52,090 bases of DNA from the NCBI GenBank assembly GCA_041645215.1, contig JBAZQK010000001.1, positions 1 through 52,090 of the forward strand, in the 5' to 3' direction. This stretch comes from Patescibacteria group bacterium (GTDB taxonomy: Bacteria; Patescibacteriota; Patescibacteriia; Veblenbacterales; UBA10138). Made by a program: the position numbers and the translations under genes. Position 1 is the first letter of the stretch. The number at the start of each line of letters is the position of its first letter. Positions 12,090-14,357 of this stretch are shown in pieces. A model generated the notes under the pieces. The model saw only the letters and a list, made by a program, of their open reading frames with translations. It was not told the DNA's origin and did not search any database.

Positions 12090-12315
12090 TTTTTGTCCCT
12101 CGCATTTTTAAATTTATTATTTCAAGTTTCAATTGTTAAAGAAAATTTATTTAAAAAAATTCCCACCGTTTAAGGTGAGAATTAAAAACTACCAAATGAA
12201 AATCCACTACGGCCCGGCTTCGCCCAGGGCCTTTTAATACTTATTGCTCTAAAACAACCTAAATTCATACTGCTACTAATAGTAGCCATTATAAAAATTG
12301 TGTCAAGTTTATTAT

Positions 12316-12759
12316 TTAAATAATTAAAAATAACAAAAATAACCCAAACATTACAATTATTTCAGCTATGGAAAAGTATTTTATGGGCCCTTTTAAATTA
12401 ATCCTTTTATGTGGGTAAAAAGGAAAGTAATCGCTATTATCCAAAGCATCCAAAGCTAGGTGACTTAAATATCCCAAGGCAAACACCATTCCAAATTTAT
12501 AATCAAACACGGCCACCATCGCTGAAACTACCAAACCAAAAATTACATTATGCAAAACATTTCTTTGGTCACCCCAAGGGTCATGTCTGTTCGTAATTGT
12601 CTTTATAAATTTTTTAAAACTAAACAATGCCCCGTTTTTAAAATAAGACACCAAATGGTCCAAATCAACCAACAAAGCGCCGGCTAAAGCAGCGGTGTAA
12701 TTACCAGTAATTTCACCAATAATTAATCCACCTAAAAGGTGAGTTGGCAAGAGCATCAT
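12316..12759 (-). CDS. Membrane-bound metal-dependent hydrolase (YdjM/DUF457-like)
   Basis: Motifs PTH, LVDLDH, RNVLHN, GYLSHLALDAL. Confidence 0.8.
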   Translation of the reverse strand: MMLLPTHLLGGLIIGEITGNYTAALAGALLVDLDHLVSYFKNGALFSFKKFIKTITNRHDPWGDQRNVLHNVIFGLVVSAMVAVFDYKFGMVFALGYLSHLALDALDNSDYFPFYPHKRINLKGPIKYFSIAEIIVMFGLFLLFLII

Positions 12760-12842
12760 ATATCTAAATATCTAGCCAAACACAAATACCTATTAATTAT
12801 ACTGTGGTGTCGCGCTCAGCGCGACTATGACCACGCTAAGCG

Positions 12843-12929
12843 TGGTGGGCTAGGTGGGACTCGAACCCACATCCCGCAAACGGGACAGCATTTTAAGTGC
12901 TGCGCGTATACCAGTTCCGCCACTAGCCC
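12843..12929 (-). tRNA. tRNA-Leu(UAA)
   Basis: GGGCTAG/CTAGCCC acceptor, CAGCA-CT-TAA-AA-TGCTG, variable arm CCCG-TTTG-CGGG, encoded CCA. Confidence 0.97.
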
Positions 12930-13402
12930 TTATGTAAAATATTCCTCCCCCGATGAGTCGGCTGCAAGCTATGACAATTGGGACAAAGAATGCGTAAATT
13001 ATTCAAACGATTATCATGCCTGTCACCGTTAATATGGTCAAGCTCCAAAGGAAGATAACCATCAGTATTCCTTTTGGCCCAACCACACAACTCACAACAT
13101 TGTTTCTTTATACTGGCCGCAAACAACCGACGTTTTAATTTGTAGCTTTGAAAATTACTATTTTTGATAAGTATTTCTTCAAGTGGTATTCGCGGCTTAC
13201 CAATACCAGTCATGCCACGATTCCAACCTTTCCCTCTAAAATGTTTTGTTTTTAAATTATATTCGTGTATATATTGCTTGATTTGTTCATAATTACCACC
13301 TGCTGGACGCAACCCCAAATTAAGAAGTACTTGACGATAACTAAACGAATCTTTAACAGCTTTAGTTAATTGGTCCATTGTCCATTTTCTACGTCTAGCC
13401 AT
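12923..13402 (-). CDS. Free-standing HNH endonuclease
   Basis: CELCG...LELDHINGDRHDNRLNNLRILCPNCH; start moved to MARRRKW; stop codon lies inside the tRNA acceptor stem. Confidence 0.92.
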   Translation of the reverse strand: MARRRKWTMDQLTKAVKDSFSYRQVLLNLGLRPAGGNYEQIKQYIHEYNLKTKHFRGKGWNRGMTGIGKPRIPLEEILIKNSNFQSYKLKRRLFAASIKKQCCELCGWAKRNTDGYLPLELDHINGDRHDNRLNNLRILCPNCHSLQPTHRGRNILHKG

Positions 13403-13646
13403 AAATACATTATGGCATAAGGTAAACGCAAAGGCAATACAATACTTATATGTGTACCAGCTTACTCCGCACTGCCCCTCCGTGAGACTAATGTGGGGTT
13501 TCACACCCTAATTCTTTATTTTTAAAAATCACTAGCCCTTAATTTAGGCAAAAATAGCATAGCATTTGGGTTTTTTTATGGCAAGAAACCACCATAACAA
13601 TAAATAAAAACCCGGTCCTCCATTACCGGGTTAATAGTTTCATAAA

Positions 13647-14357
13647 TTAAGAACAAACTATTTTACTGTATTTGTTTGCCAAATATTCTTTCATTTTTGC
13701 TGGTTCAGAACCAATCGCGCACAGTGGGCATTCATCTGGTTTGTACTTAGGTAGATCAGGTTTTAATAAACTTACAATTTTAAATCCGCCTATTGAATCT
13801 TTTCCGGAACGATTAATTATAGCCGCTATTCTTTGATAAAACTCGACTGGTTGTGGATTCCCCGCTTTAATTGCATTAATAGTTTTAAAACTACTACCGC
13901 CTGTAGTCACAACATCTTCAATCGGCTGTACAAAAGCATTGGGTGGTATTATGTGGCGTTTCCAAGTTTGTAAATCACCTTCTTTTTCAGTTATTCCGTG
14001 AAAACAATCAAAATAATCAGCCAAATGACTAACTAAAAAGGTAGCGCCAAACGATGGACCAACTATCCAATCTGCCGAATTGATTCCTCCTAAACGGAAA
14101 GCTATTTGGTATGTAATGATTTTTGCGGCGGCTGATTTTTGCAGAACAAACGTACAGTCATAATACTCACCACTGTGCAACCCGCTTGTCAAAAGCGCAT
14201 GAGGTTCATTTTTATCTCCAGAATGAATCCAATGAACAAAATACGCCTGCAAAAAGTAGTCAATTTCAAGTCTAGTTAAAATACGACCGCCTATATCATT
14301 AACGGTTAACTTACGAACTTCTGAGAAAGAAAGCTTACAGATATCTTCTATCAGCAT
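13647..14357 (-). CDS. pyrE: Orotate phosphoribosyltransferase
   Basis: LLTSGLHSGEYYDC, PRPP-binding IEDVVTTGGS; overlaps the end of pyrF. Confidence 0.85.
   Translation of the reverse strand: MLIEDICKLSFSEVRKLTVNDIGGRILTRLEIDYFLQAYFVHWIHSGDKNEPHALLTSGLHSGEYYDCTFVLQKSAAAKIITYQIAFRLGGINSADWIVGPSFGATFLVSHLADYFDCFHGITEKEGDLQTWKRHIIPPNAFVQPIEDVVTTGGSSFKTINAIKAGNPQPVEFYQRIAAIINRSGKDSIGGFKIVSLLKPDLPKYKPDECPLCAIGSEPAKMKEYLANKYSKIVCS

Follow-up and report, generated by a model that had tools for sequence, protein, structure and literature searches.

The HNH/tRNA-Leu(UAA) locus

The stretch of DNA considered here, hereafter the window, comprises 52,090 nucleotides (nt) from a member of the Patescibacteria, or candidate phyla radiation (CPR), and represents contig C20 of a 26-contig, 1.17-Mb genome. 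It carries a gene for an HNH endonuclease that runs directly into a gene for tRNA-Leu(UAA), and this pair is the subject of the present analysis. The HNH open reading frame (ORF), the tRNA and all other features of what we will call the cassette lie on the minus strand of the window. The tRNA-Leu(UAA) gene (12843..12929), detected by ARAGORN and scored at 61 bits by the Rfam tRNA model, starts with the acceptor sequence GGGCTAG at 12929, has an encoded CCA and is the single tRNA-Leu(UAA) among the 47 tRNAs of the genome. The HNH gene (12923..13402) encodes 159 amino acids (aa) and its end reads ...CAT AAG GGC TAG, with the stop codon TAG (12925-12923) being nt 5-7 of the tRNA. The end of the ORF and the 5' end of the tRNA share the 7 nt GGGCTAG (12923..12929), and the same overlap is found in a metagenome-assembled genome (MAG) of the same genus, a Candidatus Kerfeldbacteria (locus L009). 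An earlier reading of the bare sequence, referred to here as the original prediction, had the HNH stop codon formed within the first 7 nt of the tRNA; both the coordinates and the reading of the ORF agree.

Reading along the minus strand, the HNH gene and the tRNA are preceded by a terminator-like hairpin (13609..13632) of the upstream gene (13647-14357), a promoter-like site (TTGCCA-17 nt-TATGCT, 13556..13584), a 12-nt copy of the HNH/tRNA junction made up of TAA and tRNA nt 1-9 (13530..13541), 51 nt containing a hairpin, a stretch at 13478-13451 resembling the tRNA 5' end, and the cassette promoter (TTGCCT-17 nt-CATAAT, 13409..13437). The first two features were identified by terminator and promoter scans, respectively, and both are conserved in L009. 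The terminator-like hairpin marks where the native upstream DNA ends. The promoter-like site is probably the native tRNA-Leu promoter, and its layout is that of the native promoter at a site without the HNH gene in genome G034.

Judged by sequence profiles and a structural model, the 159-aa product is an HNH (His-Me finger) endonuclease. It matches the Pfam HNH model with 22.8 bits (cutoff 21.4) and falls just below the cutoff of HNH_3 (24.2 bits; cutoff 24.8). The profile phrog_10822 is matched with an E-value of 6.4e-47, residues 1-154 aligning with profile positions 2-154 of 245, and extends further at its C-terminal end than the window protein. The best model in the PADLOC defence library is named "homing endonuclease" (E 1e-18). 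The catalytic residues D122, H123, N135 and H144 and the zinc residues C103, C106, C140 and C143 are invariant in 36 homologues. In the AlphaFold2 model (pLDDT 84.6), a three-helix domain at the N terminus is joined by a disordered linker (residues 59-68) to a C-terminal HNH fold. The latter has a CxxC...CxxC arrangement, and its strands 120-123 and 136-139 are followed by helix 141-145. A fold search with this model returned weak generic HNH matches (McrA, Cap5, PacI, Gme HNH), and a sequence search of the PDB with the protein gave no match. The protein family has more than 5600 cluster representatives, of which the named ones are almost all from Patescibacteria. The gene is present as a single copy in the genome. 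Between the HNH copies of the two species of the genus dN/dS (the ratio of nonsynonymous to synonymous substitution rates) is 0.07 at a dS of 0.58, and by this measure strong purifying selection has acted on the gene ever since the two sequenced species parted.

Linkage of the nuclease to tRNA-Leu(UAA)

Two independent sets of loci were compiled, 80 from GTDB species genomes and 80 from metagenomes. In 73/80 loci of the GTDB set, nt 1 of tRNA-Leu(UAA) falls within -102 to +24 nt of the HNH stop, and in 77/80 loci of the metagenome set the tRNA lies directly 3' of the HNH gene, giving 150/160 for both sets together. Such adjacency statistics had been proposed as a check in the original prediction, and they are in its favor. 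The commonest upstream neighbor of the HNH gene in the GTDB loci is tRNA-Cys(GCA). The conserved part of the protein ends about 13-18 nt before nt 1 of the tRNA and the ORF then continues to the first stop, which lies inside the tRNA in 38 of the 74 GTDB loci with a 3' tRNA-Leu(UAA) and in 24/77 metagenome loci. Since the ORF reads on to the first stop it meets, often within the tRNA, the apparent fusion of the two genes in the window is ordinary for the family. The HNH gene is free-standing, neither intron nor intein, and occupies one fixed site. An Rfam scan of 12300-14000 at E<=10 found the tRNA alone, with no group I intron and no other family, and the tRNA itself is uninterrupted, which is not the arrangement of a group I intron with an encoded homing endonuclease, such as that in tRNA-Leu(UAA) of cyanobacteria, where a ribozyme core splits the tRNA, as a rule within its anticodon loop. 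That nuclease and tRNA-Leu(UAA) would move as one unit is supported by these comparisons.

A variant order is seen in locus L039 (1687-2464), where tRNA-Cys and tRNA-Leu(UAA), without a spacer, are followed by 63 nt, the HNH gene and a tRNA-Leu(CAG). The anticodon arm of this tRNA-Leu(CAG) is like that of the HNH-linked UAA type. The layout could reflect an anticodon switch or a change of target.

Patchy distribution and empty sites

Of the 401 genomes in the class sample, 20 have the HNH gene, and these belong to 15 families. Among 61 relatives it was present in seven, and within the family of the window the same-genus genome alone carries it. The best match outside the genus (75% identity) is in a Komeilibacteria MAG, while another Kerfeldbacteria MAG reaches 66%. 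Occupied and empty sites occur side by side within genera, namely g28, g209, g114 and g157. In g157, HNH-less species have the order gene, terminator, spacer, tRNA, and the HNH-bearing species has the order gene, short tRNA-like remnant, promoter, HNH, tRNA. In g28, flanks that are 82-83% identical on both sides enclose 552 nt in place of 14 nt. Presence/absence polymorphism at a single site combined with patchiness is the pattern of intron-less homing genes. The original prediction had called for a comparison with HNH-less orthologous loci, and this comparison uncovered intact empty sites, with syntenic flanks, in the same genera. On the evidence of these loci, the cassette is a mobile one, whose site is still empty in close relatives.

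Two further observations concern the presence of the gene. In genome G378 (contig C69, 9156-9389) a truncated HNH sequence, covering residues 77-154 in a 104-aa frame, adjoins a tRNA-Leu of the C30-G40 type described below, and this copy may be a decaying cassette. In a landfill metagenome (run X2), the depth of the contig is 14-20 in the flanks and 1-3 across the HNH gene (12932-13486). No contig bridging an empty site was found in that run, and the drop in depth is no evidence for an HNH-less allele. Among the sequencing runs, no RNA run is listed as covering this DNA.

Stranded tRNA fragments and the cassette boundary

The 110 nt before the ATG were lined up across all loci, and the first 28 nt of each resident tRNA were compared with the region from -100 to -36 (threshold p<=0.05). 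A significant match was obtained in 19/75 GTDB and 22/76 metagenome loci (41/151 in all), with approximately 3.8 expected per set. The matches end at tRNA nt 23-28, mostly 38-55 nt (about 45) before the ATG, and the motif GGTAnACGC, which corresponds to tRNA-Leu nt 18-26, ends about 45 nt before the ATG across the loci. Because the fragments end there, the 5' edge of the cassette is placed at the junction of D arm and anticodon stem (nt 26/27) of an older tRNA-Leu. The fragments are often unlike the resident tRNA. Complete 26-nt fragments with a different acceptor strand are present in L028, L054, L077 and L174, and in genome G261 the fragment matches the native tRNA of the congeneric, HNH-less G310 and not the resident tRNA. 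By these alignments, the front end of the old tRNA is left upstream of the cassette, where it then decays.

In the window, the stretch GGGGCAGTGCGGAGTAAGCTGGTACAC (13451..13478) is read as a decayed copy of tRNA-Leu nt 1-24/26 on the basis of alignment, shuffles and position. Aligned with tRNA nt 1-24 it matches at 21 positions, with one mismatch and with four gaps that take up six columns. Dinucleotide shuffling of the 127-nt leader attains its score in 171 of 2000 cases (p 0.09), and p is 0.023 when a 65-nt window and mononucleotide shuffles are used. The stretch ends 48-49 nt before the ATG, in register with the stranded fragments of relatives, and it is because of this position, not its own score, that it is read as an old tRNA 5' end. 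The likeness pointed out in the original prediction is borderline when taken alone (p 0.02-0.09) and stands on the position it shares with the fragments in 41/151 relatives.

The second 5'-end-like piece is the 12-mer TAAGGGCTAGTG, found by a repeat search as a perfect direct repeat at 13541-13530 and 12932-12921, with a spacing of 609 nt. Exact 12-mers anchored on the junction are expected 2.4e-4 times by chance in the leader. The upstream copy lies 14 nt 3' of the promoter-like site, with its tRNA nt 1 (GGGCTAGTG) 17 nt after the -10 hexamer, and going by this spacing GGGCTAGTG stands where the native tRNA would begin. At the place of the 12-mer L009 reads GGGCCATTTG. Pairwise alignment with L009 also identifies a 49-nt indel (13459..13507) with the hairpin GGGTGTGAAACCCC; L009 is without these 49 nt, which include most of the stretch 13478-13451, yet it keeps GGTAAACAC at the boundary. 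As this boundary is shared with the same-genus locus, the insertion is older than the divergence of the two species (dS 0.58). The two pieces in the window could represent one decayed fragment plus an insertion, or the scars of two invasions. No significant HNH remnants or other cassette pieces were detected in 13403-13546 (p 0.17-0.49), and neither the 49-nt indel with its hairpin nor the whole leader has another copy in the genome or in approximately 200 fetched loci.

The cassette promoter and an inverted motif

In the promoter layout conserved in 55 loci of the family, the spacer between the -35 hexamer and the -10 hexamer (tATAAT) contains the block cgtNtacc, and the -10 hexamer mostly ends 3-6 nt before the ATG. 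In the window 6 nt separate the end of the -10 hexamer from the ATG, and the conserved block reads GCGTTTACC (13429-13421) inside the spacer of the cassette promoter. The short distance between -10 hexamer and ATG suggests a leaderless messenger RNA (mRNA), and the HNH mRNA is probably of this kind. An inverted motif pair, GGTAnACGC (13450-13458) and GCGTnTACC (13421-13429), is separated by a constant gap of 19-21 nt in 55 related loci and scores above shuffles, none of 200 of which reach its score. This pair may be an operator for the nuclease.

A foreign or converted tRNA allele

Congeneric pairs have tRNA-Leu genes that are 76-88% identical vs. 99-100% for neighboring tRNAs. In g28 the tRNA-Leu(UAA) is identical at 66/83 positions (flanks, 82-83%) and in g209 at 65/86 (neighboring tRNA-Gly, 100%), and in both genera the whole tRNA-Leu, acceptor stem included, is unlike that of the congener. 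In g157 the values are 74/84 and 64/84, with tRNA-Cys at 98.9% and 54 nt of tRNA-Gly at 100% as controls. The comparison in g114 (64/85), for which no control is available, has its differences confined to the D stem, the anticodon arm and the variable arm. The allele comparison at HNH-less loci envisaged in the original prediction thus finds the linked tRNA-Leu unlike the congeneric allele, and the proposal of an engine for tRNA replacement agrees with the contrast between tRNA-Leu and its neighbors.

The HNH-linked tRNAs share an anticodon arm of the form CA/CTTAARA/TG, with a C30-G40 pair, in 61/76 GTDB and 67/77 metagenome loci. HNH-less tRNAs fetched from relatives (nine from the family of the window and one from another family) have GA and TC at these places in 10/10 cases. 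In the class sample, G30-C40 is found in 277 genomes and C30-G40 in 47. The 20 HNH-bearing genomes comprise 15 with C30-G40, one with G30-C40 and four with neither pattern, while the 381 HNH-less genomes comprise 32 with C30-G40 and 276 with G30-C40, the rest having neither. The association between C30-G40 and the HNH gene is strong (Fisher p 4e-13), and 9/10 contrasts within families agree with it (p 0.011). The association is compatible with cleavage resistance, of which it is no proof.

The window tRNA has a C30-G40 anticodon stem (CAGCA/TGCTG). Its nt 1-26 match the nearest HNH-less tRNAs of the family at 25/26 positions, whereas the remaining 58 nt match at 44/58; over these same 58 nt the best HNH-linked tRNA from elsewhere matches at 51/58. 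From this comparison of alleles, the tRNA 3' of the nuclease, with its C30-G40 marker, is of foreign origin or has been converted. Flanking markers appear to be co-converted, with the direction, i.e., the donor allele, being the part that we infer.

Two HNH-less species of g157 (L127, L128) also have tRNA-Leu(UAA) genes that differ at 22/86 positions. The neighboring tRNA-Gly and tRNA-Cys are 99-100% identical, each having been checked against the HNH-bearing locus of G360. The difference between L127 and L128 hints at repeated replacement of one tRNA.

A probable homing cassette and its alternatives

We consider it probable that, in the Patescibacteria, tRNA-Leu(UAA) is invaded at nt 26/27, and overwritten, by an intron-less homing cassette composed of a promoter, a leaderless HNH gene and a tRNA. 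The original prediction had proposed an intron-less homing unit that invades tRNA-Leu genes, and its case is strengthened by the linkage, the patchiness, the empty sites, the stranded fragments and the foreign tRNA. The unit would comprise the compact promoter, the gene for the 159-aa HNH protein and a full-length tRNA-Leu(UAA), nt 1 of which follows the last conserved codon at a distance of about 15 nt. In naive tRNA-Leu genes the nuclease would bind GGTAnACGC, a conserved sequence of the D arm, and cut within the anticodon arm or just 3' of it, and the break would be repaired from a cassette-bearing copy, with the stranded fragment, often together with tRNA-Cys, as the left homology arm and the tRNA body as the right one. 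Promoter, HNH gene and donor tRNA sequence would all be copied in during repair, and every conversion tract would take in the anticodon arm, some of them the tRNA as a whole. A carrier would be shielded from the enzyme it encodes by the C30-G40 allele. The D-arm motif recurs in inverted form within the promoter and could act there as operator, and the RNase P cut at the tRNA 5' end, in removing the stop codon, could hold the nuclease at a low level, as proposed for T4 SegB. In the window, the cassette was already in place when the two sequenced species of the genus diverged.

Several points weigh against this reading. A near-identical donor tRNA for the window was not found, the best candidate matching at 72/84 positions vs. 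70/84 for HNH-less tRNAs of its own family. Some 8-18% of linked tRNAs (e.g., in G088) keep G30-C40. Within the window alone, neither of the two upstream fragments is significant under lenient gapped scoring against a 161-nt query (p 0.17-0.21). Covariation within the inverted motif pair is not supported (22/200 permutations), which is why an RNA or DNA stem under selection was given up in favor of two protein-binding half-sites. Purifying selection and persistence as a single copy are also expected of a useful host gene. In g157, the tRNAs of the HNH-less G180 (84/84) and G319 (86/87) match that of the HNH-bearing G360 and stand behind a native-looking terminator; these linked-type tRNAs could go back to a conversion that did not transfer the nuclease, to its subsequent loss or to a susceptible allele that is native. 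Finally, C30-G40 could be the susceptible target and not the immune allele, as the association gives no direction.

These last two points lead to the strongest alternative, in which a mobile cassette docks at tRNA-Leu(UAA) and recognizes the C30-G40 allele, invading lineages that already have it and leaving the tRNA unreplaced as a rule. The native-looking spacer of G180 and G319 and the 32 HNH-less genomes with CA/TG are further points for it. We nevertheless regard it as unlikely. G30-C40 is the majority state in nearly every family (277/401 genomes), for which reason C30-G40 is derived wherever the HNH gene sits. In g28 and g209 the whole tRNA differs while the flanks (g28) or tRNA-Gly (g209) are conserved, the stranded fragments are unlike the resident tRNA, and an intact target beside its own nuclease would suffer repeated cutting.

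It is less likely still that the HNH gene is a resident host gene of an old tRNA-Leu operon, serving repair, defence or regulation, which is ancient in the CPR and has been inherited vertically with many losses. The dN/dS of 0.07 over a dS of 0.58, the single copy and weak matches of the protein to ZorE-type defence HNH domains would all suit such a gene. Against this, it occurs in only 5% of the class over 15 families, so that hundreds of precise losses, each restoring the promoter-spacer-tRNA layout, would be needed, and an old operon predicts neither stranded fragments nor foreign tRNA alleles. Furthermore, the 65-75% identity across CPR lineages does not follow taxonomy, and it is "homing endonuclease" that comes out as the best model of the defence library.

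There is very little to recommend the idea that the HNH gene and tRNA are a remnant of a larger integrative element or prophage with a tRNA-Leu attachment site. It is true that tRNA genes are classical integration sites and that the protein has phage relatives; however, the insert measures approximately 0.55-0.6 kb in every pair of occupied and empty sites, holds the HNH gene only and lies 5' rather than 3' of the tRNA. No integrase or phage protein is encoded by the neighboring ORFs, and neither a group I intron nor any other Rfam family was detected. The integrase and attachment (att) repeats at the tRNA 3' end that characterize tRNA-targeting islands and prophages are not seen here. Similarly improbable, and largely refuted by the comparative data, is the view that the upstream similarity and the 12-nt repeat arose by chance and that the gene-tRNA overlap is a trivial result of tight packing: the p of 0.17-0.21 for the two features under lenient scoring and the p of 0.09 for the stretch 13478-13451 alone would allow it, but the stretch coincides in position with fragments in 41/151 relatives, the junction-anchored 12-mer is expected 2.4e-4 times and HNH and tRNA are adjacent in 150/160 loci.

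A more far-reaching form of the homing reading, which we put forward tentatively and hold to be somewhat less likely than not, would have a phylum-wide, gene-drive-like cassette that overwrites the one essential tRNA-Leu(UAA) gene of ultra-small bacteria. It would cut naive G30-C40 genes, install an immune C30-G40 tRNA together with a new promoter, use the conserved tRNA-Cys and tRNA-Leu genes as universal homology arms across species and repress itself through an operator mimicking the D-arm half of its target. If this were true, the cassette would be one of the main drivers of tRNA-Leu turnover in the CPR, including conversions that leave no nuclease.

Relation to known systems

The closest described system is SegB of phage T4, a free-standing GIY-YIG homing endonuclease encoded in the T4 tRNA gene cluster, whose recognition site is the conserved T-psi-C motif of several tRNAs and which spreads its own gene and adjacent tRNA genes at the cost of recipient markers (PMC2330249). 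The segB ORF abuts tRNA-Arg, and it has been proposed that maturation of this tRNA severs the stop from the last codon and lowers expression (PMC2330249). SegB and the cassette nuclease are alike in being free-standing, in lying among tRNA genes and in having their target, or proposed target, in a conserved tRNA motif. However, SegB is a GIY-YIG and not an HNH enzyme, acts in phage crosses and not in cellular genomes, and has the T-psi-C motif of several tRNAs as its site; neither a stranded tRNA half nor the replacement of a single essential host tRNA has been described for it. Also close are HNH-family site-specific nucleases encoded by ORFs in the tRNA cluster of phage T5, where processing of the transcript has been proposed to lower expression (PMC2330249). 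These are phage genes, and neither what they target nor the way they are inserted is known to concern tRNA-Leu nt 26/27.

Full-length homologues of the window protein are found among phrog_10822 phage HNH proteins (36-48% identity), e.g., gp113 of Escherichia phage mistaenkt and g201 of Synechococcus phage S-CRM01. The mistaenkt gene (40% identity; L137:1201-1731) stops 1 nt short of a tRNA-Leu(UAG) that belongs to a cluster of tRNA genes, and its S-CRM01 counterpart (about 40% identity; L136:1064-1653) adjoins tRNA-Leu(CAA). These phage genes differ in their partners, which are other leucine isoacceptors, and are annotated only as "HNH endonuclease".

SegF, SegG and MobE of T-even phages are intergenic nuclease genes whose products cut the allele lacking the gene, with co-conversion of the markers in between (references in PMC2330249 and PMC2790892). 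They lie between protein-coding genes and involve no target duplication, which sets them apart from the cassette. The latter carries a replacement copy of the first 26 nt of its target, by which the interrupted gene is rebuilt. Some integrative elements carry a replacement tRNA end in attP. They resemble the cassette in that they enter a tRNA gene and restore the displaced part from their own copy, and differ in that the 3' end is replaced by site-specific recombination, whereas in the cassette it is the 5' end and there is no integrase. I-TevI reportedly represses its own expression through an operator resembling its homing site; the putative operator proposed here has the conserved inverted motif as its basis.

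Searches of the literature for such a cassette in the CPR found no paper in the library searched. Different from the systems above are the cellular, phylum-wide setting, the single essential tRNA gene as target, the stranded 5' part, and the replacement tRNA with a new promoter. Homing endonucleases among tRNA genes are known from a few phages, and the cassette would be their cellular counterpart across a radiation of uncultured bacteria, with an anatomy not described before for free-standing nucleases. If the mechanism is true, it would account for the strong variation of tRNA-Leu(UAA) between close CPR relatives in which other tRNAs stay alike, and would illustrate how genes conserved everywhere can serve a selfish element as landing pads in its transfer between species. 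A further gain would be a compact natural nuclease whose target in a tRNA gene is defined, with G30-C40 vs. C30-G40 as a concrete allele pair bearing on its specificity.

Other features of the locus

Two candidate features were rejected. An Rfam match to ftsZ-DE (27.8 bits vs. a gathering score of 72) is the terminator hairpin, and a 17-nt match on contig C23, lying in what by eye resembles the end of a coding frame, was taken as chance. The ORFs neighboring the cassette encode a YdjM-like membrane protein, an MGS-like protein and one product without a Pfam match. Lastly, the CCA encoded in the window tRNA-Leu occupies 12843-12845, and a 96%-identical copy from the same genus (L090) is without it.

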